A DNA stretch of 22,534 nt from Candidatus Thorarchaeota archaeon. Its GTDB lineage: Archaea; Asgardarchaeota; Thorarchaeia; Thorarchaeales; Thorarchaeaceae. How positions within the stretch are numbered: the stretch's first letter is position 1; each line of letters begins with the position of its first letter. Under the pieces are notes generated by a model that did not search any database, was not told the DNA's origin, and saw nothing but the letters and a program-made list of their open reading frames with translations. This document shows positions 6,102 to 20,238 of this stretch, piece by piece. The stretch covers positions 1 through 22,534 of the forward strand of contig JBHLRZ010000044.1 of assembly GCA_048882045.1 (NCBI GenBank), read 5' to 3'. The position numbers and the translations under genes are program-made.

Positions 6102-7583
6102 TCATACAGATATTACTCGAATGACATCAGTACCTACGAATAGACTACCATCAGGCAATGTGCCAGTAATTGTAACAGTGACTTCATCTCCGACCATGAG
6201 AACAGCTTGAACTGCACTACGGTCGAATTTCACCATCAGATCAATAATACCGTCCGCATCATAATCTCCAATGGCATACGGATTCGTTTCAGCACTTACA
6301 AGACCATTGAGCATCACTGTACTGATATCAATGTCCTCAGCTGTGTACTCAGAATCTCTCGGAAGCTCGATATAGACTGTGACCCATCTTCCTTTACTAT
6401 CGAGATTTAGGGTGTTGGGGTCGAAGTCCACATCACTAGTGGATGCCAATCCTGCTATGAAGATCTCATAGTCTGACCCTGTGCCTCCACCACGGCCCAT
6501 CCAGGTTACGAATCCACTTGTCACCCTTGCAATCTCGTCACCAATCAGATTGTCAGTTATCTGGTCTGTAACTCCAGTCACAGAATTATGGAGAAAGACC
6601 TCATAGTCGGATCCTCCCTCTATAGCAGTCCATACCACCTTTCCTGCGTAAAGATCATCCACATAGTCATCATAATCGTTTGTCGTAATCTGAGTCTTTG
6701 TATCATCAAAGTAGTCATAGAGAAAAATCTCGAAATCTGTTTCCTCCAGTGGAACATCTGGATTCTCAGGCGCAACATAAGCCACCTGTCCATCATGTAG
6801 CACGAAGCCGCGAGTATAAACTATGTCTTCAATGAATGTTGTGCTCTGACTGATAGAGTCATAGAGAAATAGCTTGACTGTTCCATCAACGAGTGCTCTC
6901 CATACTACCAAGCCTTCATGAATCTGAGGAGCATCGTCTATGTATGTGTTCTCTGTAATCTGAGTTGTGTGTCCTGTGGAATAATCATAGAGGAATATCT
7001 CAAGGCTTTGTGAATGACCCCTCCATGTGACCAGTCCATTTTGAATCTGAGGATAATAATTTGCATATGTGTTATGACTGATTTGGATTGTTTGGCCAGT
7101 CGAGGAGTCATACAGGTATATCTGGGCAAGACCTATAGCTGTTCCCTCCCACGCGTACCAGGTCACGAGGCCCTCATGTATCTGCGGGTGATTGTCGTTC
7201 AGGTCATTATCTGTAATCCTAGTCGTGATTCCAGAGCTATGGTCGTACAGAAAGACCTCATAATCATCGCCATCCGGAGGCCTTGCTAACCAAGTCACCA
7301 ATCCCTCATGGACCTTAGGAATAGTATCAGAATAATCGTTGTTTGTAATCTGGGTTATTGTGTCAGTGTTAGCATCATAGAGAAATATCTCTCTCGCATC
7401 CCCCTCACCACTATACCAGACAATGAATCCATCACTTGCACCTCCAAACCCATCGTTGACATCATTGTCTGTGAGCTGTATACTGGTGTATTCTACTGCT
7501 GCTGTAGTTATTGGAGCGATTGTCATGCTCAGGACAAGTGTGAGTCCAAGAAGCAACACCGCCCGTTTCTTATTTTTTTCCAT
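6102..7583 (-). CDS. Secreted 8-repeat beta-propeller (TolB/archaeal surface type) protein with a C-terminal beta-sandwich domain
   Basis: Signal peptide MEKNKKRAVLLLGLTLVLSMTIAPITTAA. Eight ~42-48-aa repeats QIT-x-N-x(3)-D-x-x-P-x-I-x-x-G-x-V-x-W...EIFLYD. The C-terminal domain reads DFDPNTLNLDSKGRWVTVYIELP...GDYDADGIIDLMVKFDR and contains a DxDxDG Ca-binding loop. Confidence 0.85.
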   Translation of the reverse strand: MEKNKKRAVLLLGLTLVLSMTIAPITTAAVEYTSIQLTDNDVNDGFGGASDGFIVWYSGEGDAREIFLYDANTDTITQITNNDYSDTIPKVHEGLVTWLARPPDGDDYEVFLYDHSSGITTRITDNDLNDNHPQIHEGLVTWYAWEGTAIGLAQIYLYDSSTGQTIQISHNTYANYYPQIQNGLVTWRGHSQSLEIFLYDYSTGHTTQITENTYIDDAPQIHEGLVVWRALVDGTVKLFLYDSISQSTTFIEDIVYTRGFVLHDGQVAYVAPENPDVPLEETDFEIFLYDYFDDTKTQITTNDYDDYVDDLYAGKVVWTAIEGGSDYEVFLHNSVTGVTDQITDNLIGDEIARVTSGFVTWMGRGGGTGSDYEIFIAGLASTSDVDFDPNTLNLDSKGRWVTVYIELPRDSEYTAEDIDISTVMLNGLVSAETNPYAIGDYDADGIIDLMVKFDRSAVQAVLMVGDEVTVTITGTLPDGSLFVGTDVIRVISV

Positions 7584-7624: not shown

Positions 7625-10063
7625 TCATAATCTTCTGAATTTGATCTCTGACAACAACCACGAGTGTATGTCTTGAGATGATGCCATGGTGTATGATGTT
7701 TCTGTATCCGCTATCGAAAAACTGTCAAGCACAGAAGGTAGATAGTTAGGGTCTAACATTCCAAGAATTGTAAAATAGCCATTTGAGTTTGATATTATGT
7801 CAGGGACAAAAAGACCAGCTGCTTCTACTGAGCGAGTCCAAATACTGGTGCCGTCTGCATCAAAACACTCAAGGTGCAACCCTGAATTGCGCCCGCCCAT
7901 CCCACGTATGCCAGCTGCTTCAAAAGCTACGAATCGGTCTGGACTCAGCTCCATAATCCCATGCACATAGAGGCTGACATTCTTCTCCCATAGGATGACA
8001 CCTTCATTGTCAAATCGAATGATGTAACTATCGAACCAACCAAAGTAGTCACCGTTACTGCATTGTGTTATCCAGAGATTCCCATAGAAATCTTCGACTT
8101 CTGCGGTAGTGTAGATCCTTGAAAACTCCCCGCCCTGGTCGTCAAATCTGGCTACTCCAATGGGACCCTCCCATCCTGGTTCCAAAGGCATTGTGAACCC
8201 TCCAGCTAAATCCTCAGTAATGTCTGCGGATAAGGCATATCTCGGATGTTCACAGGGATACGTATTGTTCCAGACAACACTTAGGTCTGCATCAATACGC
8301 GCTATCCAATATGTCCAACCTGAATAATAAGGTGAGGTTTCCTTATGAAGAATGAATTCCCCATCACCATAGTGTGAAAATCCGTTCAAATAACCACAGT
8401 GCCATGTCCTTTCCCGGACTTGTTCGCCTTCATCGTCAATAATGAGAATCTGAAATCTAGCCCTATCAGACCATTCCCGTTCAAATGCGTAATCATCGAT
8501 GTAGTGTCCGATTGCGAGGTCCCCATTATTCCTCTCTGCTATTGAACGAATCTCCCAGGTTTTTCCGTATGTTCTGTTCCAAACTATGTTGTATTCCTCA
8601 TCAGTCCGGATGACCCACAGCTCGCGATCATCGTATTTTGAATCAGCAATGTCGATTTGGTGATAACCTGCAATTGCAAACCCTCCATCGGTCAACTCTG
8701 TTATCTTTCCCCAAAACGGAACGGAGCTCAGGCGAAAATTAGTATCATATGTCATATTGTGTACAAGATTGCCATCCTGATCCACATCTAATAGCCATAT
8801 ATCGAAATCTTCTGGTGTTTCTGATTCAAATTGGTAAAGTACAGAAGATAGATAGTGAGGATCCACCATCCCAAGAATAGATAGACCACCATCAGCGTTG
8901 CTTATGATGTCTGGGACGAAAAATCCATCAGCCTGAATTGAGCGTATCCAAATTGTAGTACCGCCAGCATCAAAGCATTCGAGATACATGCCTGAACCAC
9001 CCCACCTGTTGTTACGAACATCAACTGCTGAGAAGACAACGAATCGGTCAGGACTCAGCTCTTGAAACCCGTGCACATTGAAGTCAATGGTCTTCTCCCA
9101 AAGGATGTCTCCTTCAATGTTAAAACGGATGATGTATCTAGGACCTCCAGCCAGGTAGTCGCCATTACTGCATTGTATCAGAGTAAGATATTGCCCCGTT
9201 TCAATCGAATTTGTGAAGACTCTTGAAGTTTCATTACCTTGGTCGTCTAGTCTGACTATTCCGATAGGACCGTCCAACCCTGGTTCCAAGGGCATCGTGA
9301 ATCCTCCAGCCATGTCTTCTAGAATGTCTGTGTGTGTGGCAAAACTGGGGTATGTCTTGTTCCAGACAACACTCAGATCTGTATCAATACGAGCAATCCA
9401 AAAGGGAGAGCTATCTGGTGTGTGGTAGATCTCTTTTGCAAGAATGAATCCTCCATCATCACAGTGAGAAAATCCACTCAACCACCCATAACTAAAACTC
9501 CAACTCTGTTCCCTGACATATTCGCCTTCACCATCAATAACCAGTATCTGGAACGTACTCCTTTCATTTGCGTAATCATCAATATAGTGTCCGATTGCTA
9601 AGTCCCCATTATTCATCTCTGATATTGCACGTACTTCGAATGATATTCCATATGTTTTGTTCCAAACTATGTTGTAATCCTCATCAGTCCGTATAACACA
9701 CAGTTGATGATAGTAAGGGACTGAATACTGGGTGTCAGCATAACCTGCAATTGCAAACCCTCCATCGGTCAACTCTGTTATCTTTCCCCAAAATGGAACA
9801 GAGTCAGAACGGAGATTGGTTTCGTAGATAGCATTCTTCACAAGATTGCCATCCTGATCCACGTCTAGTAGTAACACATCGAATTCATACGATCCTGAAA
9901 AAAAGAATGGAAATATCATTTGGCTTGAGAGAACTGATATGTAGAGGATTGTCATCAGACTGATTGACATTAGGGTTGTCCGAGGATTCTGACGCCAAAA
10001 TCCACTCCTATGAATAGGAGGAATCTGGCAGACTCTCGATTTCTCCTTCATTATTTGTCCCAT
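7625..10063 (-). CDS. Membrane-anchored or secreted protein made of two tandem beta-propeller-like halves
   Basis: N-terminal hydrophobic segment, then repeated W-N-x-T-Y / D-x-x-G-x-x-x-W blade motifs. Two ~360-aa copies each begin FD[V/I]xLLDVDQDGNLV.N..Y.TN.R..SVPFWGKITELTDGGFAIAGY. Confidence 0.85.
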   Translation of the reverse strand: MGQIMKEKSRVCQIPPIHRSGFWRQNPRTTLMSISLMTILYISVLSSQMIFPFFFSGSYEFDVLLLDVDQDGNLVKNAIYETNLRSDSVPFWGKITELTDGGFAIAGYADTQYSVPYYHQLCVIRTDEDYNIVWNKTYGISFEVRAISEMNNGDLAIGHYIDDYANERSTFQILVIDGEGEYVREQSWSFSYGWLSGFSHCDDGGFILAKEIYHTPDSSPFWIARIDTDLSVVWNKTYPSFATHTDILEDMAGGFTMPLEPGLDGPIGIVRLDDQGNETSRVFTNSIETGQYLTLIQCSNGDYLAGGPRYIIRFNIEGDILWEKTIDFNVHGFQELSPDRFVVFSAVDVRNNRWGGSGMYLECFDAGGTTIWIRSIQADGFFVPDIISNADGGLSILGMVDPHYLSSVLYQFESETPEDFDIWLLDVDQDGNLVHNMTYDTNFRLSSVPFWGKITELTDGGFAIAGYHQIDIADSKYDDRELWVIRTDEEYNIVWNRTYGKTWEIRSIAERNNGDLAIGHYIDDYAFEREWSDRARFQILIIDDEGEQVRERTWHCGYLNGFSHYGDGEFILHKETSPYYSGWTYWIARIDADLSVVWNNTYPCEHPRYALSADITEDLAGGFTMPLEPGWEGPIGVARFDDQGGEFSRIYTTAEVEDFYGNLWITQCSNGDYFGWFDSYIIRFDNEGVILWEKNVSLYVHGIMELSPDRFVAFEAAGIRGMGGRNSGLHLECFDADGTSIWTRSVEAAGLFVPDIISNSNGYFTILGMLDPNYLPSVLDSFSIADTETSYTMASSQDIHSWLLSEIKFRRL
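7730..9886 (-). repeat. Intragenic tandem duplication of ~1.08 kb
   Basis: An identical 54-bp block occurs at 8663-8716 and 9740-9793 (offset 1077). Protein similarity extends through SILGMVDPHYLSSVL / TILGMLDPNYLPSVL. Confidence 0.9.
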
Positions 10064-11707: not shown

Positions 11708-12160
11708 AGTATCACAATCACCACGCGATTAACCAATCTCTATTAATGAGATTAACAAATATGTGTTAACAACTTCTTAATAAATCCTTCGACAATTCGT
11801 AACTCTTCCAATCTACTGAGTTACATAATATAATTTTCCCACTTGCCAAATCTCGTTCCTATTTTCAGATTGAAATGTTATTTTGAACAATGGTAACAAT
11901 CTGTTATAGTAATTAGTTGTTCAATGAAAGTTCCTACTCAACTTCCTCCTCAAGTCACCGATCACAAAAGAAAGATGACGGAACTCATCTTACTGCATAA
12001 GACTAGTTAATTGATCTAACTATGAACAATTTGCTATAATTCCGTCTTGACCATAGTCCGTTAAATTATTCCAGTCCATACCGTGTAAGGAAACAATGGC
12101 TCTATTATTTAGCTATTGTTAATACTTGCCAGTAAAATTGACAAGGAGCGGAGATTTACT

Positions 12161-15100
12161 TTGTCGCGAATCAGGAGTGCACTCCTGAAAAACACGAGAA
12201 GGAGTGCGTTAGCCGTAGCTATAATCCTCATTATTGTTGTGTCATCCTTTGGGATATTCTATTTTCTTCCACAGGGGCCAGGACCTATGGGAGGGGACAA
12301 TGATGGAATGCCCGACAGCTGGGAGATGTTGTATGGATTGGACATGAATGATCCCAGTGATGCACAGTTGGACAAGGACGGGGACGGACTTACCAATCTG
12401 GAGGAATACCTGCTTGGTACCAATCCCACGCTTGTGGATACGGATAGCGACGGTCTCTGGGATAAGGAGGAAGTCAACCTCGGTACTGACCCCACGAATT
12501 TCGATTCTGACAACGACACCCTCAGTGATGGCGAAGAAGTCCGGATTTACTACACCAATCCCTTGTCTCCTGACACTGATGCAGAAGGTCTCTCTGACGG
12601 AGCAGAAGTGAACACCGTTGGGTCAGACCCGAATGATCAAGACACTGACAATGACATGTTAACTGACTGGGAAGAGTATGTGGAACTCCACACGAATCCA
12701 TTGTTGAATGACACCGACCAGGACACTCTCAAGGACTGGGATGAGCTTCACATCTATGGTACCGACCCCAGACTCAACGATACGGATCAAGACCTCCTGC
12801 TGGACAACGAAGAGATCCAGTATGGTACTGACCCCCTTGATACAGATTCAGATGACGACGATCTGGCCGATGGTTCTGAACCTGACTGGAACGTGGACAC
12901 CGATGGGGACTCCCTGATCAACGCTCTCGACCCTGACTCCGACAATGATCTCCTGATGGATGGTGACGAGATTCTCCTGGGGGCCGATCCCCTTGACAAC
13001 GACTCTGATGACGATAATGTGATTGATGGCTGGGATCCTGCTCCTGTTGACAGTGATGCTGATGACGATGGAATTACCGACGGAAATGAGGCTACGACCT
13101 GGGCTTATTGGTATGAGGCCGAGGATTTGGACCTGGAACAGGGTGTTATAGGGGACGACCCTGATGCAAGGAACGGACGAGCAGTATACGTTTCAGGTCC
13201 AGGATTGGTGTTCAATTCGACGGTACCTAGCTCTCAGGCTGACTACAAGTTCTTCGTGAGGGCGAGGGCACAATTTCCTGAGTCTGCTAATAGATCGATA
13301 CAGCTTGCTATTGAGCAAGACAATGACACCATTGTAGCTTATGACATGCACCTCTTGACTGGTATTTATCGGTGGTATTCCACCCCCTTCTTTAACGCGA
13401 GTAATGGTCAGCTCCGGATTATAGTAAATGCCAGTCATGCCTGGGTTGTTATTGACCGTGTTGCGCTGGTCAGAATGGACAGTATCAACTCAGAGACGAC
13501 AGACCCTCTTGACCAAGATACCGATGGTGATGCGGTCATTGAAGGTCGTGAGTCTGTTCTGAATTCATATTGGTATGAGGTTGAAGATTTTGCTTGGGGT
13601 CCTACGCAAATCTTCGACAATGTGAATGCAAGCAACAGCAAACATGTCACTCCGTTGCCTGATGGACGGGTCGCATTCATTTCCGACCCGTCCTATATTT
13701 TTCCGATGGGGACCTATGTTGTATTTGTTCGCGCGATAAGCACCACCCTCAACACCAGTAACACTCTGGAGGTCGATATCACGCTTGGTGGAGACCCTAT
13801 TACCATTCCTCCGGTTCAATTTGCCCTTGTGAGACAGGTTGTCTATGGTGTGATAGTAAGGGATGTCAATCTCTACGAGTGGAACTTTGCCCTCAAGTTC
13901 GACCTCTTGCAGAATGACACAATAGACATCGATCTGAGGGCCCTCGGTTCACTGAGCGATATCTTTGTCGACAAGGTCCTGCTGATGAAGCTCGAGTACT
14001 GGCAGGACACTCAGTTCATTTCCTACGACAACGGTACTGTGATCGTGTCGTCTGTGATGAACGTCCCTAGAGGCATTTCCGACCCTATGGACATTGACAC
14101 TGATGGGGACGGATATCGAGCGGATGATGGATTTTCACCCGGCTCTTCTGGCTGGCTCACAGATGGCTTTGAGTTGAATGAGATTGGGACCAACCCATTT
14201 GACATCGATACAGATCGCGATGGAGACGCTGACAATGTCGATCCCAATCCCAACAGTGGGGATACTGATAAAGATGGCATCTTTGATTACATTGAGATTT
14301 TGAGCAGTTACAATGGAACTCCGACCGACCCGCTCAATGCAGACACAGACGGGGATTACATACGAGACGGTGACGAGGACCTGAACCTCGATGGAAGTCT
14401 CACGACAGGTGAGACCAATCCGACTCTCGTTGATACAGACATGGACGGACTTCAGGATGGTACAGAGATTGGTATCGTGAGTCCTGATACTGTTCCTGTG
14501 GGTCCTCCTGTCATCACAGATCCACTGAATCCAGACTCAGACGGGGACACGCTTTTGGATGGGTTCGAGGATGCTAACGCAAATGGGCAATATGAGCCAG
14601 CCCTGAATGAGACCAGGGCTGATAGACCTGACACCGACATGGATGCATTGAACGACAACGAGGAACCGATTTATTCCACAGATCCAAACAATCGTGATAC
14701 AGATTATGATCTGATTTTAGACGGCCATGAGATTTTTTGGTATGGTACGAACGCCACAGATTCAGACACTGATGACGAGGGCCTTCTTGACGGATTCGAG
14801 GTCCGCAGATTCTCGACAAACCCATTACTTCCGGACACCGATTCTGACACTCTCACAGATTGGGAAGAAATTGTGATATATCACACAAATCCATTATCGG
14901 ATGATAGTGATGGTGATGGTCTGTTCGACAATGAGGAAGTCCAGACATATGGAACGGACCCGAACCATCCTGATACGGATCGAGACGGAGTTTCAGACTA
15001 TGACGAGGTCCAAGCTGGTACAAACCCGCTGAACGCGCCTCCTGTGGCTCGTTTCGGACTGAGGAGAGATGCGTACAGGAATCTCGTGGTGCAGTTTGAT

Positions 15101-17452
15101 AGCACGAAATCGTACGACACTGATGGAGTGATCGTGGGATGGGGCTGGGCCTTTGATGACGGGAGCTTTGCTGTCGTAGCAAATCCAACGCACACATACT
15201 CACAGACGGGAGAGTATGATGTCACACTCACCGTGACGGATGATGATGGAGAGACAGGCTCAATCACGGAAACGGTCACAGTTCTTAATCAGCTGCCAAT
15301 CGCAGAGGCTGGTGAGGACCAGTCAGTGTTCACTGGTTTCAACGTGGACTTTTCCGCCACTGGTTCTACTGACCCAGATGGCACGATCATCTCGTATATC
15401 TGGGACTTCATGGATGGTCAGACTGCTCCTGGCGAAACCACAAACCATGTCTTTGGTCAACCCGGGACCTACTACGTGACTGTCACTGTTACCGATAACG
15501 ATGGGGCCAAGGATACCGATACCGTGGTCATCATCGCAGAAACTCCGAGGCCACCAGACCTCACAGTCGCTCTTGAGAATGTGTCATTTTCAACAGACGG
15601 AGAGCATGTCATGATGACTATGACTGTTGAGAACACCGGAGACCTAGATACCGGCTTTTTCTCATTCCAAGTACGGGATTTGGACATGACCTGGGGTACC
15701 CTGCGCAATAATCATGCAGGGCTCCAAGCTCACTCAAGTGTTGATTACAACATCACACTCCCTGATTGGCCTATGGGCTCCCACGACATCATAATAGAGC
15801 TCGATCATTTGCATCGACTTTCTGAGGCAGATGAAGAGAACAATAATCTCATAGTGACAGTGCCCGATGCTGATGGTGACAGTCTGCCAGATGTGGTTGA
15901 GGACTTCTATGGCTCGAACAAAAACAGTGCAGATTCTGACTCAGACGGGTTGAATGATGGGAAACTTGTAGAAAACAGATACGCTCCAATCGAGAAAGAC
16001 TGGAACATCGATTCAGATAGAGATGGACTGATCAATGCACTTGACAGCGACAGCGACAATGATGGCTACGTGGACGGTACAGATCTGGACCCCCTGCATG
16101 ACCTCCTGGTGAAGGTGAAGCTCTACAGGTTCGAGGTCGAAGACCCTATTGACTTCGAGATAGTCATGAAGTCCAAGACTATACGGGTTCCGTATGTGGT
16201 TGTCCACTGGTGGGGTGTCGAGATCAAATACGAGTCCTTGACAATCCGATATCCGGATATTGTGGAGAACAAAAATGCTGAACCATTCTTCAGAGCGTAT
16301 GCAGGAGACCAGTGGTCGACAGGGAACATGATGCACAGCGAGGTGCCTGTTGCTAGAAGTGTGACACAGCTTAGTTCCAGCCGTCTTCCACTTTTCGTGG
16401 CCAATGTTCCTGACGATGACCCCAGAGTGTACGTGGATATAGAGGCGTGGGATGTTGACCTTGATTTCGATGATCAGTTCGACCTAGCTGGATTCGGCAG
16501 GACCTCTCAAGCAGTCTTCAATCTAGCAGAGGCAGTAATGTATCAGCCCGGGGACTACCAGCAATGGGCTTCCTCAAGCGGGAGTGACGATGGAAGCACA
16601 AGCAGCGACACTGACGACGCCTATGTCAGATACTATATCTACCACGACTACGAACTTTCCTATCAGGAACAGATGGACCTGGCAGAGAAGTTCATGCCTC
16701 AGCTCTATTTCGATGTAGCAGAGGTCTGGCGGCCGCGTGACATACAAGACTTCCTAGACCATGCAATCCTTCGAGACTCTGATGGATCTCAAGCGGACCC
16801 TGATCCAACACCTGCTGAACTAGAAGCATATGCTGGAACTGGAGCCTACTTGGACCTTGATAATGCATACCATAGTCAGGACTCCTCAGCACACGGTCTC
16901 AAGATTTACTCACATGTGTTCACAGGTTACAACGACCACATCTTTGTACAATACTGGTTCTTCTATCTCTTTGACCTCTGGGTCAATCAACATGAGGGAG
17001 ACTGGGAGATGATCCAGCTGATACTACCGCAAAAGGGCTCTCAGGATGTGGATGTCTTGGTGCCTCTACAGGCAGGATACTCCTGGCACAATCATATCGT
17101 GACGAGTGGATGGTATTCCGGAGACCTGTCAAAGGTGGGTGTCAATCATCCTGTTGTGTACGTAGGGCTTGGTGGACATGCGAGTCGGTTCACTCCTCTT
17201 GGTGTCTACACTGCGGCGAACATGAACCAATACTCAATGGAGCTCTTGATCAATCAAGGATGGTTGAGATTTGATGGGGAGTGGGGTGATAGGTCTGTCA
17301 TACCTGGATTTTCTGGTTCTCACGGCCCGGTATTCAGGTCTGGTTGGGTGTTGCTCCCGGAGCATTTCGTCGTGACATTTCGAGGTACCTATCATGCGTA
17401 CATGTGGACTGATCCATGGTTCTGGCATTTCTACACCACTGAGCCGCCCTAA
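12161..17452 (+). CDS. Giant membrane-anchored surface protein: TSP3-like Ca-binding repeats, 2 CBM-like domains, 2 PKD, CARDB, C2-like, C-terminal Vps62-like domain
   Basis: The ORF is open from 12116, but TTG at 12161 follows AAGGAG/GGAG. Basic N-terminus plus one TM segment. About 30 D-x-D-x-D-x-L-x-D-x-x-E...GT[D/N]P repeats. Two WYE[A/V]ED beta domains (13109, 13571). PKD motifs (W-x-F-x-DG...H-x-[Y/F]..G-x-Y-x-V-T-x-TVTD) from 15032 and 15287. CARDB motif PDLTV...E-x-DE-x-NN. C-terminal QYWFFY...HEGDWE...HPVVYV...GGHA...WLRFDGEWG. Confidence 0.9.
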   Translation: MSRIRSALLKNTRRSALAVAIILIIVVSSFGIFYFLPQGPGPMGGDNDGMPDSWEMLYGLDMNDPSDAQLDKDGDGLTNLEEYLLGTNPTLVDTDSDGLWDKEEVNLGTDPTNFDSDNDTLSDGEEVRIYYTNPLSPDTDAEGLSDGAEVNTVGSDPNDQDTDNDMLTDWEEYVELHTNPLLNDTDQDTLKDWDELHIYGTDPRLNDTDQDLLLDNEEIQYGTDPLDTDSDDDDLADGSEPDWNVDTDGDSLINALDPDSDNDLLMDGDEILLGADPLDNDSDDDNVIDGWDPAPVDSDADDDGITDGNEATTWAYWYEAEDLDLEQGVIGDDPDARNGRAVYVSGPGLVFNSTVPSSQADYKFFVRARAQFPESANRSIQLAIEQDNDTIVAYDMHLLTGIYRWYSTPFFNASNGQLRIIVNASHAWVVIDRVALVRMDSINSETTDPLDQDTDGDAVIEGRESVLNSYWYEVEDFAWGPTQIFDNVNASNSKHVTPLPDGRVAFISDPSYIFPMGTYVVFVRAISTTLNTSNTLEVDITLGGDPITIPPVQFALVRQVVYGVIVRDVNLYEWNFALKFDLLQNDTIDIDLRALGSLSDIFVDKVLLMKLEYWQDTQFISYDNGTVIVSSVMNVPRGISDPMDIDTDGDGYRADDGFSPGSSGWLTDGFELNEIGTNPFDIDTDRDGDADNVDPNPNSGDTDKDGIFDYIEILSSYNGTPTDPLNADTDGDYIRDGDEDLNLDGSLTTGETNPTLVDTDMDGLQDGTEIGIVSPDTVPVGPPVITDPLNPDSDGDTLLDGFEDANANGQYEPALNETRADRPDTDMDALNDNEEPIYSTDPNNRDTDYDLILDGHEIFWYGTNATDSDTDDEGLLDGFEVRRFSTNPLLPDTDSDTLTDWEEIVIYHTNPLSDDSDGDGLFDNEEVQTYGTDPNHPDTDRDGVSDYDEVQAGTNPLNAPPVARFGLRRDAYRNLVVQFDSTKSYDTDGVIVGWGWAFDDGSFAVVANPTHTYSQTGEYDVTLTVTDDDGETGSITETVTVLNQLPIAEAGEDQSVFTGFNVDFSATGSTDPDGTIISYIWDFMDGQTAPGETTNHVFGQPGTYYVTVTVTDNDGAKDTDTVVIIAETPRPPDLTVALENVSFSTDGEHVMMTMTVENTGDLDTGFFSFQVRDLDMTWGTLRNNHAGLQAHSSVDYNITLPDWPMGSHDIIIELDHLHRLSEADEENNNLIVTVPDADGDSLPDVVEDFYGSNKNSADSDSDGLNDGKLVENRYAPIEKDWNIDSDRDGLINALDSDSDNDGYVDGTDLDPLHDLLVKVKLYRFEVEDPIDFEIVMKSKTIRVPYVVVHWWGVEIKYESLTIRYPDIVENKNAEPFFRAYAGDQWSTGNMMHSEVPVARSVTQLSSSRLPLFVANVPDDDPRVYVDIEAWDVDLDFDDQFDLAGFGRTSQAVFNLAEAVMYQPGDYQQWASSSGSDDGSTSSDTDDAYVRYYIYHDYELSYQEQMDLAEKFMPQLYFDVAEVWRPRDIQDFLDHAILRDSDGSQADPDPTPAELEAYAGTGAYLDLDNAYHSQDSSAHGLKIYSHVFTGYNDHIFVQYWFFYLFDLWVNQHEGDWEMIQLILPQKGSQDVDVLVPLQAGYSWHNHIVTSGWYSGDLSKVGVNHPVVYVGLGGHASRFTPLGVYTAANMNQYSMELLINQGWLRFDGEWGDRSVIPGFSGSHGPVFRSGWVLLPEHFVVTFRGTYHAYMWTDPWFWHFYTTEPP

Positions 17453-17472: not shown

Positions 17473-18927
17473 TCACAATTCATTGGTCAAAACGAAATTC
17501 ACTAGTTCCTCCATATCTCCGAAAGGACTCTCATAATACACGTCAGGATGGACACATACCTCTTCATTGGCTTGACCGGTATAGTCGATACCCATCCCTG
17601 GAGTGAACCTCACAAGTATCTTCGAATTTGGAAGGATGTAGTAGATTGGAGAGTCACTAATTCCATCACCACCAGATGGAATTCCATACAGCTTGGCAAA
17701 TCCTGTTTCTTTACAGAACAAGGCGAAGGCATCTGTTGCAGAGAACGTTATTGCATCAATCAAGACAATGATTCTTCCTCTGAAGTCAATTTCACCTGAA
17801 GGATCTACCGTCTGAATATAATCGTAAATCGTGAAGTCTTCTGTCAAGACTTCGGGTGGTAACTTTTTGAAACGCTCTTTTGAAACGATGGAGCCTATGT
17901 CCGCAACTCTTCTGAACATCTCGACATAATTTCCAGATCGGAAAGCCAGATGCATCTTGCTACTCAGCTTCTCTCTTGCAAGGGGTGCGATTACATTGCG
18001 CATCCAAGGTTCATAAGATCCTCCTTGGTTTCCACGAACATCGATGATTAGAAGTTTATAGTCCTCAATCTGTTTGTAGAACTCCATCAGTACCTTGTTG
18101 TCATCGTCTGCGAAAGAATCTTCAAAGTCACCAATACGAACATACCCTGCCTGTTTTTCAGGCCATACTCTAGTTTCTAATCTAAGAACAGGATAAACAG
18201 GTGTGAGAGAATACCGAAACTCATAACCTATCTCAAAAACGACGTTCTTCTTCTCACCAGAATCTGTTTCTAGTGTAAACTCAGCATCTGGTCTGAAATG
18301 CTTCGGCTGTATTCGGAAGAGGTAGAATAACTCTCTTTTGAAATCCCAGTTGAAAATCCCTTTTTCATAGCAATCTTTGACAGCTTCGTGGATTGGTATA
18401 CCATTGACTGCTATAACTCTTGAATGGATGCCATATTTCTCCTTCCAATCTCCATAACCAGCTTCAATGAGGTAATCCCCGTTGTTATACCAAAACTCAG
18501 CATCATAGTTGAGAGAGTTGCGTTCTCTTAAGAATTCCTCAATGATAGGTTCCCAATACCTGTAGTATTCCTTCAAGCGCTCACTGAATACTTCACTAAA
18601 TGGTTCAGTATTTCGATAGTATTCAACTTCATAGAAGCTGTCTAACCAGCTTGGTGTAACAATTGACGCATGCCCATTTTGTAGTGCTTGTACTGCATCG
18701 AACATGACCTCGAGATGGTCTGATATTGTTTTCCCGTTTCTTATACGGTCGCAATAGCTTTCATAGAAGTCAAGCCATCTATAACCCAGTTGTCGCTCTT
18801 TCAGTTTCATGTATGGATTATTTTCACGCATCACTGTGAAGAGTGCTTCTAGATCTTTCAACCATTCATCTTCTGTCATATCTTGCGGATGAATGTCATT
18901 AAACGTGATGATGGAGCCTGATGGCAT
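17473..18927 (-). CDS. S41 family peptidase
   Basis: Motifs GYVRI, LLIIDVRGNQGGS, TFSATDAFA (catalytic Ser region), YGIPSGG and VHPDV, plus a PDZ-like VIAVNGIPI. Start moved to ATG 18927 (GGGAG just upstream), which removes the head-to-head overlap with the next gene. Confidence 0.88.
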   Translation of the reverse strand: MPSGSIITFNDIHPQDMTEDEWLKDLEALFTVMRENNPYMKLKERQLGYRWLDFYESYCDRIRNGKTISDHLEVMFDAVQALQNGHASIVTPSWLDSFYEVEYYRNTEPFSEVFSERLKEYYRYWEPIIEEFLRERNSLNYDAEFWYNNGDYLIEAGYGDWKEKYGIHSRVIAVNGIPIHEAVKDCYEKGIFNWDFKRELFYLFRIQPKHFRPDAEFTLETDSGEKKNVVFEIGYEFRYSLTPVYPVLRLETRVWPEKQAGYVRIGDFEDSFADDDNKVLMEFYKQIEDYKLLIIDVRGNQGGSYEPWMRNVIAPLAREKLSSKMHLAFRSGNYVEMFRRVADIGSIVSKERFKKLPPEVLTEDFTIYDYIQTVDPSGEIDFRGRIIVLIDAITFSATDAFALFCKETGFAKLYGIPSGGDGISDSPIYYILPNSKILVRFTPGMGIDYTGQANEEVCVHPDVYYESPFGDMEELVNFVLTNEL

Positions 18928-19101
18928 GCTCCCAAAAAGTTGGCGAGATGATTTATGCTTCACTATGAACGCTACAATTTGATAGAATTGGTTACAAGTA
19001 AAAGAAACAGGGCAAGAGAGGAAGACCATCCACAGATCTCACGAACCATGACGATGCAAAGACTCATTTCCAACTCCAGATATAATTGCGATTCGGAAAG
19101 A

Positions 19102-20238
19102 ATGTGCACGAGAAGTGATCTGAATGCTAGTGTGCAGAAGGTTTTGGATGCATTAGTTGATTCAGGTGAAGAAATAGGTTTGCAGGTCGCAGCTTATGTT
19201 GATGGCGAACTTGTCGTCGATGCATGGGCTGGGGTTACAGATGAGATCAGTGGGAAACCAGTCAATGGTGATACACTGTTCACCTCTTGGTCGACTACCA
19301 AAGGTTTTGTTTCAACTTGTATTCACATTCTTGGTGATCGAGGTCTTATAGATTACGACACTTCAGTGGATACTTACTGGCCTGAGTTTGCAACACATGG
19401 CAAAGACAAGATTACTGTCCGTCATGTCCTTTCTCATTCCTCAGGGATACCACATATGCCTGAGGATGTGACTCCAGAGATGATAACAGACTGGGATGCC
19501 ATGTGCACAGCAATAGCTAACCTTAAGCCACTATGGCCTCCAGGGAATACAACACATTATCATTTTTGGACCTGGGGATGGATTATTGGAGAGGTAATCC
19601 GTCGAGTTGATGGTCGACCCGTTTTTCAGTTTGTTCAGGAAGAACTATGTCAACCTCTGGGTATCAATGATTTCTATCTGGGCATTCCTAACACTGTGGA
19701 ACATCGTGTCGCACCTGTTAGAGAAGAGCGTACTCGTGCTGCTAAAGCACCTGACAAAGATGATTTGGCTTTACGAGTGACGCCACCACAGATCACACGC
19801 GCTGAGATTGTCAATCGGCCTGATGTCCGACGGGCCTGCATCCCTGCAATTGGCGGAATCATGAATGCTCGCGCCATTGCCAGACACTACGCAATGCTTT
19901 CTGGCTACGGAGAGTTGGATGGAACCCGAATTCTATCAAAAGAACGAGTCGACCTGATTCACACTCTTCATAATGTTGATCCTGCCAAGTTGTTGGAAGG
20001 GCAGATTCCAATAGGTCTTGGATATCTCCTTGGTGGAAGTACCCATCATGACTGGAGCATTGCAATGGGTGAAACCGGTGGAGAATTTGGTCATCCCGGC
20101 CATGGGGGTTCACTAGGGTTTGCTGACCCGAATCGAAACATTGGCTTTGGTTTGACCAAGAATCTCATGAAAGAAGGAGATGAAACTGTACGCATGGTAG
20201 CTGAAACAATCAGAAATCAGCTTGATAGTACTGCTTAA
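19102..20238 (+). CDS. Serine hydrolase, class C beta-lactamase/EstA-like family
   Basis: SxxK motif (WSTTKG), VLSHSSG, PLWPPG...YH, and FGHPGHGGSLGFADP. Start moved to ATG 19102. Confidence 0.92.
   Translation: MCTRSDLNASVQKVLDALVDSGEEIGLQVAAYVDGELVVDAWAGVTDEISGKPVNGDTLFTSWSTTKGFVSTCIHILGDRGLIDYDTSVDTYWPEFATHGKDKITVRHVLSHSSGIPHMPEDVTPEMITDWDAMCTAIANLKPLWPPGNTTHYHFWTWGWIIGEVIRRVDGRPVFQFVQEELCQPLGINDFYLGIPNTVEHRVAPVREERTRAAKAPDKDDLALRVTPPQITRAEIVNRPDVRRACIPAIGGIMNARAIARHYAMLSGYGELDGTRILSKERVDLIHTLHNVDPAKLLEGQIPIGLGYLLGGSTHHDWSIAMGETGGEFGHPGHGGSLGFADPNRNIGFGLTKNLMKEGDETVRMVAETIRNQLDSTA

Follow-up and report, generated by a model that had tools for sequence, protein, structure and literature searches.

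An HEGDWE domain at the tip of a putative Thorarchaeota surface stalk protein: predicted NLP fold and membership of the DUF946/Vps62 superfamily

Described relatives of the domain

The described proteins closest in structure to the subject of this article are the NLPs (NPP1 family, PF05630). The subject itself is the C-terminal domain, carrying the motif HEGDWE, of a 1763-residue stalk protein encoded by a Candidatus Thorarchaeota archaeon (GenBank assembly GCA_048882045.1, contig JBHLRZ010000044.1, positions 1 to 22,534, the whole stretch of DNA that was analysed and that we call the window). We refer to this domain as the tip; structure prediction places it on the NLP fold and its homologues place it among relatives of Vps62. 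In the NLP called NLPPya, binding of the sugar headgroup of glycosylinositol phosphorylceramide (GIPC) sphingolipids requires a Mg2+ ion that has Asp104 and Glu106 as direct and Asp93 and His159 as indirect ligands; in HaNLP3 two histidines of the pocket hold a phosphate (PMC6743777). The residues described as critical in NLPs are D93, G100-E106, H128, Y151, N158, H159, G193 and A195 (PMC7031652). NLPs are small (~210 aa), free, secreted proteins of plant-associated microbes, whereas the tip is a domain of ~265 aa on a 1763-aa, presumably anchored stalk of an archaeon.

To our knowledge, the vacuolar (cytoplasm-to-vacuole targeting, Cvt) sorting role of Vps62 is known from yeast genetics only. 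One paper cites Vps62 as required for this targeting, and gives HVGDWEH as the fungal motif (PMC13159263). The Pfam model of the family, PF06101 (DUF946), has an N-terminal part which is a beta-tripod merged into "Vps62" through an alignment error (PMC8624791, PMC7613979). In the literature searched, kinship between Vps62/DUF946 and NLPs appears only as a resemblance of motifs (PMC13159263). The remainder of the stalk protein is reminiscent of the TSP3_bac proteins CglD and MtsD of myxobacteria, with which it shares acidic TSP3 repeat tracts and Ig-like spacers. An earlier note on this DNA, made from its letters alone, had connected the motif series of the tip with Vps62 and with the NLP heptapeptide GHRHDWE, and had seen in it a possible bearing on the origin of eukaryotes.

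Predicted fold, putative pocket and family of the tip domain

All the motifs lie inside the last ~265 residues of one long open reading frame (ORF), 12116..17452 (+). In the translation of 16589-17449 (+) they follow one another as LAEKFMPQLYFDVAEVWRP (from 16679), QYWFFYLF (from 16949), HEGDWE (16991-17008), HPVVYVGLGGHAS and WLRFDGEWG...GP, in the order in which the earlier note had read them and with its coordinates for HEGDWE exact. Residue numbers such as H1626 are those of the 1778-codon ORF, and domain numbering plus 1491 gives ORF numbering. The features on which the argument depends are the following.

12161..17452 (+): whole gene of the putative N-anchored surface stalk protein, 1763 aa (ORF open from 12116; likely start TTG 12161)
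16655..17434 (+): tip domain, residues 1513-1773, predicted NLP fold, DUF946/Vps62-C type (AlphaFold 2 model, Foldseek, VIA-align)
16949..16966 (+): QYWFFY strand, with Q121, Y122, W123 and Y126 (domain numbering) at least 90% conserved
16991..17008 (+): HEGDWE, with H1626, D1629 and E1631 as equivalents of NLP H101, D104 and E106 (hhalign against HRHDWE)
17087..17179 (+): putative pocket histidines H1658 (17087-89), H1678 (17147-49) and H1688 (17177-79), with the invariant W1666 (17111-13) (alignments)

The tip belongs to a large and strongly constrained family. A phmmer search with the last 287 residues against 1.84e9 cluster representatives returned 1533 homologues at E<=1e-3, of which 286 reach E<=1e-10 and 10 reach E<=1e-30. 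At least 542 loci encoding the domain turned up when prokaryotic genomes, one for each species, were scanned. The best 80 of these loci, domain only, were aligned with the window sequence. Across the 81 aligned sequences no variation is seen at H135, D138, E140, H167 and W175 (domain numbering), and conservation reaches 90% or more at QYW, E136, G137, W139, H187, G-S-H197-A, W-x(4)-G-x-W-G and G-P-x-G-P. With this many homologues and invariant residues, the series of motifs cannot be read as a string assembled by chance.

An AlphaFold model computed from the same alignment reached a predicted local distance difference test (pLDDT) of 87 and a predicted template modelling score (pTM) of 0.87, with low confidence at residues 1-14 and ~251-270; from the single sequence the pLDDT was 37. 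When the model was compared with the PDB by Foldseek, the first 15 ranks were all occupied by NLPs, with E from 1.4e-7 to 8e-6, a probability of 1.00 and target-normalised template modelling scores of 0.49-0.57, and the next match had E 0.38. These NLPs comprise HaNLP3 (6QBE), NLPPya (5NNW, 5NO9, 3GNZ and 6QBD), MpNEP2 (3ST1) and PcNLP485 (9WSC). VIA-align, which is independent of Foldseek, was run over 48,161 representative chains and gave the two NLP representatives at Z 14.8 (194 of 222 residues, root-mean-square deviation 3.7) and Z 14.1 (175 residues, 3.3), with residues 23-282 of the model covered and the next, non-NLP chain at only Z 4.7. The structural comparison that the earlier note had proposed thus matched NLP structures only and, as far as fold and family assignment alone are concerned, the tip very probably adopts the NLP (NPP1) fold, a beta-sandwich with flanking helices.

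At the level of sequence the two families are far apart, with 12-18% identity. Searches of the PDB with the tip, as a single sequence and as a profile, returned nothing, and PF05630 (cut-off 21 bits) gave no match to it at E<=10. Relatives of the tip come closer to this model, with 21.1 bits for a Njordarchaeota protein, 16 bits for one from Bathyarchaeum and 13.7 bits for another. We aligned the profile of the tip family by hhalign with a profile of ten bona fide actinobacterial NLPs (PF05630 E 1e-53 to 1e-62) and obtained E 2.4e-4 and a probability of 43.6% over 62 columns, in which HEGDWE is paired with HRHDWE, YS(Q/W)H with TSAH and (G)THPVVY with GTHPKIVY. H1626, D1629, E1631 and H1658, invariant across the family and the Thorarchaeota orthologues, align there with NLP H101, D104, E106 and H128; the counterparts of NLP D93 and H159 (candidates D1620/N and H1688) are placed only approximately. 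The position of the heptapeptide reads QHEGDWE (16988-17008), with H, D, W and E kept and G100, R102 and H103 not kept. The QYWFFY strand would be the counterpart of the NLP strand YSWYFPKD that precedes the heptapeptide, a pairing based on the NLP alignment consensus LYALYFEKDQ, in a stretch outside the columns aligned by hhalign. Both families thus appear to share the fold, an extracellular location, an H-x-x-D-W-E strand placed after an aromatic strand (YWFFY in the tip) and later conserved histidines that align.

Because the fold matches and the residues of the pocket align, we take this likeness to be a true kinship of fold and pocket, on the evidence of the model and the profiles, and the resemblance of HxxDWE to GHRHDWE pointed out in the earlier note finds its explanation there. 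By family criteria the tip is not an NLP, however, since its heptapeptide (QHEGDWE, not GHRHDWE), its lack of cysteines and therefore of the disulfide, and its profile score all fall outside. Two observations on the wider family belong here. A single-domain homologue from a Njordarchaeota metagenome-assembled genome (MAG; L014:644-1630 (+) = L101:722-1618 (+)) scores 27-30 bits with the Vps62 model and 20.7-21.1 bits with NPP1, at or above both Pfam cut-offs, and by these scores forms a natural link from one family to the other. The genome of Kribbella jiaozuonensis (L063, L083) encodes a bona fide NLP (PF05630 E 1.7e-54) together with a paralogue of the HEGDWE/Vps62 type, so both lineages coexist as distinct families.

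Membership of the Vps62 superfamily was established through the homologues. The tip itself, scanned as a domain and within longer pieces, gave nothing with PF06101 (cut-off 22.1 bits) even at E<=10, the same pieces gave nothing for the tip in NCBIfam scans at E<=10, and the PF06101 hidden Markov model run on the six-frame genome did not find the tip locus, returning only an unrelated match (E 0.31) on another contig. By contrast with the window protein, 46 of 70 homologues match PF06101 at E<=0.01, the best at 1e-12, which bears out the reading of the motif series as a mark of Vps62-related proteins. The scores are 48 (48.4) and 42 bits for Bathyarchaeota, 36 (36.2) for Aenigmatarchaeota, 36 for Nanoarchaeia, 34 (33.7) for Planctomycetota, 30 for Njordarchaeota and 18-28 for Chloroflexota and Actinomycetota; a Promethearchaeota orthologue reaches 12 bits (E 0.059), and a Thorarchaeota orthologue and the window protein have no score. 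The tip finds proteins above the Vps62 cut-off by phmmer or tblastn at E 1e-20 to 1e-43, and UniRef calls one of its homologues a "DUF946 domain-containing protein". Since it is the homologues and not the window protein that match the model, the tip is a member of the DUF946/Vps62-C superfamily by strong transitive homology in sequence, on a divergent branch.

The homologues tested individually match PF06101 only at positions ~217-490 of its 541, and positions 1-230, the beta-tripod region, were unmatched in every one of them, as follows from the erroneous merging of the beta-tripod into the model. What is shared with Pfam Vps62 is therefore the C-terminal half, with H-x-G-D-W-E, QYW and GSHA, whereas the Thorarchaeota orthologue and the window protein lie below detection by the model and the fungal motif is of the HVGDWEH type (PMC13159263). 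The Pfam entry for this family thus has a misleading name and a composite model. These results assign a predicted fold and a testable pocket (H1626, D1629, E1631 and H1658) to a domain left unannotated so far, and they put the Vps62/DUF946 motif series on the NLP fold.

Proposed display on a stalk, proposed role and distribution

The sequence of the complete protein points to an extracellular stalk, anchored at its N-terminus and stiffened by Ca2+, with the NLP-fold domain at its distal end. Ahead of the tip it is laid out as follows.

12206..12268 (+): single N-terminal transmembrane helix ALAVAIILIIVVSSFGIFYFL, residues 31-51, after a basic segment (Kyte-Doolittle scan; kept in orthologues)
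12290..13090 (+): TSP3-like acidic Ca2+-binding repeats (DxDxDG), block 1 (Pfam TSP3_bac 1e-15, 8 stretches)
13091..14065 (+): two beta modules opening WYEAED and WYEVED, aa ~326-650 (no Pfam match; CBM6/CBM35-like as a lead only)
14066..15040 (+): TSP3-like repeats, block 2 (Pfam TSP3_bac; DxDxD motif count)
15041..15535 (+): two PKD domains (Pfam PKD_4 5.5e-45, 2 stretches)
15554..15850 (+): CARDB domain (Pfam CARDB 8.7e-6)
15851..16090 (+): TSP3-like repeats, short block 3 (Pfam TSP3_bac; DxDxD motif count)
16091..16585 (+): beta domain directly before the tip, aa ~1326-1490 (no Pfam match; C2-like as a weak lead only)

Residues 31-51 are the sole hydrophobic stretch found by the Kyte-Doolittle scan, the stop at 17450-17452 is the genuine end of the protein, and a C-terminal anchor is absent. 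The whole 1778-codon ORF contains no Cys, 14.8% Asp and 31 DxDxD motifs. The gene probably starts at TTG 12161, because GGAG stands 7 nt upstream, the orthologues start with MSRIRS at this place and the ESM Atlas record begins there (residue 16). Pfam profiles gave no match for aa ~326-650 or aa ~1326-1490. The Atlas feature score of the WYEAED/WYEVED modules to a CBM_6/CBM_35 cluster is 0.82, under the trustworthy level, and that of the domain before the tip is 0.76, sub-threshold, to a cluster with C2 in 30% of its members; this domain is always paired with the tip in the orthologues (99-100% coverage of aa 1250-1778). The extracellular location suggested in the earlier note fits this architecture, with its N-terminal helix, TSP3_bac, PKD and CARDB modules and no cysteine. 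Public records name the protein only "PKD domain-containing protein" (NCBI). The NCBIfam CglD model matches it at 2.2e-43, but with 148 bits against a cut-off of 400 bits; the resemblance to CglD and MtsD is at the level of repeats only, far under the family cut-offs, and these proteins do not end in a tip domain. The tip is a new, divergent member of a known domain family in an unusual display format.

A search of long proteins with aa 1250-1778 gave eight clusters that share the layout of the stalk protein, with complete members of 1556-1765 aa and identities of 55-73%. Every one of these clusters comes from Thorarchaeota or Promethearchaeota MAGs. A further relative of 1957 aa is 36% identical. 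Orthologues of 1747-1765 aa align end to end at 62-79% identity, and the copy in a genome of the same genus is 79% identical; these MAGs show the host, which the earlier note had left conditional, to be an Asgard archaeon of the Thorarchaeota type. A search for ESCRT-II (PF05871) as an independent Asgard marker found nothing in any genome, controls included, and so says nothing on the host. Among the Thorarchaeota orthologues the tip is 59-75% identical, about the average of the protein, and CARDB is the most variable module (42-70% versus 59-88% elsewhere). The idea of a tip hypervariable like a receptor-binding head was rejected on this basis.

We propose, with a probability of about 0.6 for the statement as a whole, that the tip is a tethered recognition head or adhesin whose conserved cation pocket binds the headgroup of a sugar or phospho-sugar. 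The N-terminal helix would hold the protein in the membrane and the Ca2+-stiffened stalk would project outside the cell, carrying the NLP-fold domain at its far end. By analogy with NLPs, the tip would use a divalent cation in the pocket formed by HxxDWE and the histidines to grip a hexose, a hexosamine or a phospho-sugar headgroup. Another cell or particle would present the target, a glycolipid or a surface glycan, and the tip would act as an adhesin or recognition head rather than as a soluble toxin. It would then probably be the working part of a protein that ranks among the largest on the Thorarchaeota surface, and could serve uncultured Asgard archaea in adhesion or in recognising partners. 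Several results weigh against this proposal. The Pfam check suggested in the earlier note failed for the window protein itself, with neither Vps62 nor NPP1 matched, and the profile-profile link to NLPs is modest. The equivalence of the pockets is based on hhalign columns and the order of motifs, not on a residue-level superposition. The membrane-entering loops and the disulfide of NLPs are not conserved in the tip, so the functional analogy may hold for the pocket only. The four conserved histidines with Asp and Glu would suit a metalloenzyme as well. Finally, the stalk protein has 18 N-glycosylation sequons versus 12.9 +/- 3.3 in shuffled sequences, which is not a significant enrichment.

The last but one of these points leads to a different function, that of a metal-dependent enzyme (phosphodiesterase, phosphatase or glycosidase) delivered by the stalk to lipid headgroups or polysaccharides. 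The conserved polar set H135, E136, D138, E140, S165, H167, H187, S196 and H197 exceeds what plain cation binding needs, and members of the family are fused to enzymes or modules acting on phosphoesters and polysaccharides (GPDPase_memb, Pur_ac_phosph_N, PcRGLX), but such fusions would be just as natural for a module that targets or binds, and no hydrolase appeared among the structural matches of Foldseek and VIA-align. We know of no enzymatic activity in NLPs. The equivalent histidines of HaNLP3 do hold a phosphate ion (PMC6743777), whereas the NLP papers deal with binding and with damage to membranes and mention no enzymatic activity (PMC6743777, PMC7031652), and we consider an enzyme unlikely. 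A contact-dependent cytolysin, which would bind a glycolipid on a neighbouring cell and perturb or permeabilise the membrane there, in order to prey on that cell, to compete with it or to release nutrients, would make use of the same fold and cation pocket as the cytolytic NLPs, which damage membranes after binding the headgroup (PMC8916740, PMC6743777). Yet HaNLP3, the top Foldseek match, is not toxic, and many other NLPs are not cytolytic either (PMC6743777); the tip is tethered to a stalk of 1500 residues, whereas NLPs are small free proteins assembling on membranes; the sequences of the NLP loops and the cysteines are not conserved in it, and no immunity-like partner gene is conserved near the stalk gene in the orthologue loci compared. 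A cytolytic role is thus quite improbable, and recognition by a tethered head is the reading that we retain.

A further possibility, raised in the earlier note, is that eukaryotic Vps62 has its Asgard forerunner in this domain, which would then shed light on where a protein associated with eukaryotic trafficking came from. The Thorarchaeota host and the place of the domain in the Vps62/DUF946 superfamily speak for it, as does a second, small Thorarchaeota paralogue whose HLGDWEH is close to the fungal HVGDWEH (PMC13159263). Its distribution speaks against it. Of 201 genomes sampled from the window's phylum, 34 carry the domain according to a search with its profile; as these are samples and MAGs, a negative means not found in those searched. 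The window's own family provides 32 of these carriers, including the window genome (31 of the 43 other genomes of the family carry the domain), and the 26 other families provide two, with 0/21 and 0/40 in the two largest. The best loci outside Asgard archaea belong to Aenigmatarchaeota, Thermoplasmatota, Bathyarchaeia, Nanoarchaeia, Chloroflexota, Actinomycetota, Planctomycetota and Thermodesulfobacteriota; the bacterial homologues that the earlier note had mentioned do exist and are common in Actinomycetota and Chloroflexota, as are archaeal ones in Bathyarchaeia and Thermoplasmatota. In a quick maximum-likelihood tree of the best 80 loci and the window (prokaryotic sequences only, arbitrary root), the window groups with the Thorarchaeota and Promethearchaeota copies (98 by the Shimodaira-Hasegawa-like approximate likelihood-ratio test, SH-aLRT), then with a Thermoplasmata copy (93) and then with an Aenigmatarchaeota copy (82). 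As for the copy from Njordarchaeota, it groups with Bathyarchaeota in a clade that unites Bathyarchaeota and Thermoplasmatota (support 99), and the bacteria lie on the opposite side. Because the Njordarchaeota copy groups with Bathyarchaeia, the Asgard copies in this tree are not monophyletic.

With the nearest relatives found in Thermoplasmata, Aenigmatarchaeota, Bathyarchaeia and bacteria, a special link between the stalk gene and eukaryotes is not supported by these prokaryotic sequences. The Thorarchaeota clade lies further from the Pfam Vps62 model than do the members from bacteria and from other archaea, which score far above it. The 272 homologues retrieved for the motif comparison have motifs of the HE[G/S/A]DWE type, HQ- or HD-GDWE, or no clear motif, and none carries the fungal HVGDWEH. 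The window protein is predicted to be extracellular, in contrast to Vps62, cited for cytoplasm-to-vacuole targeting (PMC13159263). An Asgard forerunner of Vps62 is, for all these reasons, very improbable, and the bearing on eukaryote origins suggested in the earlier note is not supported: many bacteria and archaea outside Asgard have the domain, whereas within Asgard archaea it is patchy and nearly confined to one family, with polyphyletic copies, which weakens the eukaryogenesis story. A broader view would make HEGDWE/DUF946 an ancient, prokaryote-wide, metal-dependent reader of glycolipid headgroups, ancestral to the NLP cytolysins and to eukaryotic Vps62, with which the Thorarchaeota stalk would read the surface lipids or glycans of partner cells. 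We regard this as speculative and unlikely to hold in full; if true, the cell-cell contacts of Asgard archaea could be approached at the molecular level through the tip.

The second Thorarchaeota lineage consists of small, leaderless Vps62-like proteins of ~237 aa with the motif GDHLGDWEHVEV and conserved cysteines, in genomes of the window's family (L112:1345-2055 (+), L109:1300-2052 (+)). They form 134 clusters, every named one from an Asgard MAG, and are just above the Pfam Vps62 cut-off (22.6 bits). Their motif is closer to the fungal HVGDWEH and to the NLP GHRHDWEHV than HEGDWE is. They share with the tip the superfamily (hhalign probability 99.5%, E 5e-23, 195 columns) and the host lineage, whereas their single-domain build, their cysteines and their passing of the Vps62 cut-off all set them apart from it. 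The window's own genome, 93% complete, yielded no copy. Having neither signal nor anchor, they are probably cytoplasmic.

Neighbouring genes

On one side of the stalk gene lies a divergent DUF998 gene; on the other, 20 bp past the stop of the stalk gene, comes a convergent S41 peptidase gene. A neighbouring M20 peptidase, at 30%, is too distant from those of the Thorarchaeota and Promethearchaeota MAGs to inform on taxonomy. None of the window's neighbour genes was found near the orthologue in the genome of the same genus. In a Thorarchaeota MAG the stalk orthologue is followed on the same strand, 89 bp downstream, by a Lys-rich ORF of 106 aa (L002:3950-4270 (+)), which is absent from the window, and then by an ORF of 184 aa that looks PadR-like by eye. 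Because no neighbours are shared with the same-genus genome, and the genes downstream in the Thorarchaeota MAG differ as well, the stalk gene, judged by the gene orders compared, stands alone and has no conserved partner.

Elsewhere in the window, the S41 peptidase ORF (17473-19029 (-)) and an ORF of the beta-lactamase family (18955-20238 (+)) overlap head to head by 75 bp, and the true start of one or both probably lies further in. The ORF at 6102-7583 (-) encodes a 493-aa protein without Pfam match at E<=1e-3, with a hydrophobic, signal-like start, about nine propeller-like repeats "(I/V)T.N...D..PQIHEGLVTW" and a C-terminal dockerin/EF-like segment, DYDADGIIDL. The ORF at 7625-10063 (-) encodes an 812-aa protein without Pfam match, whose two halves of ~400 aa are near-identical over long stretches (LLDVDQDGNLV...SVPFWGKITELTDGGFAIAGY).

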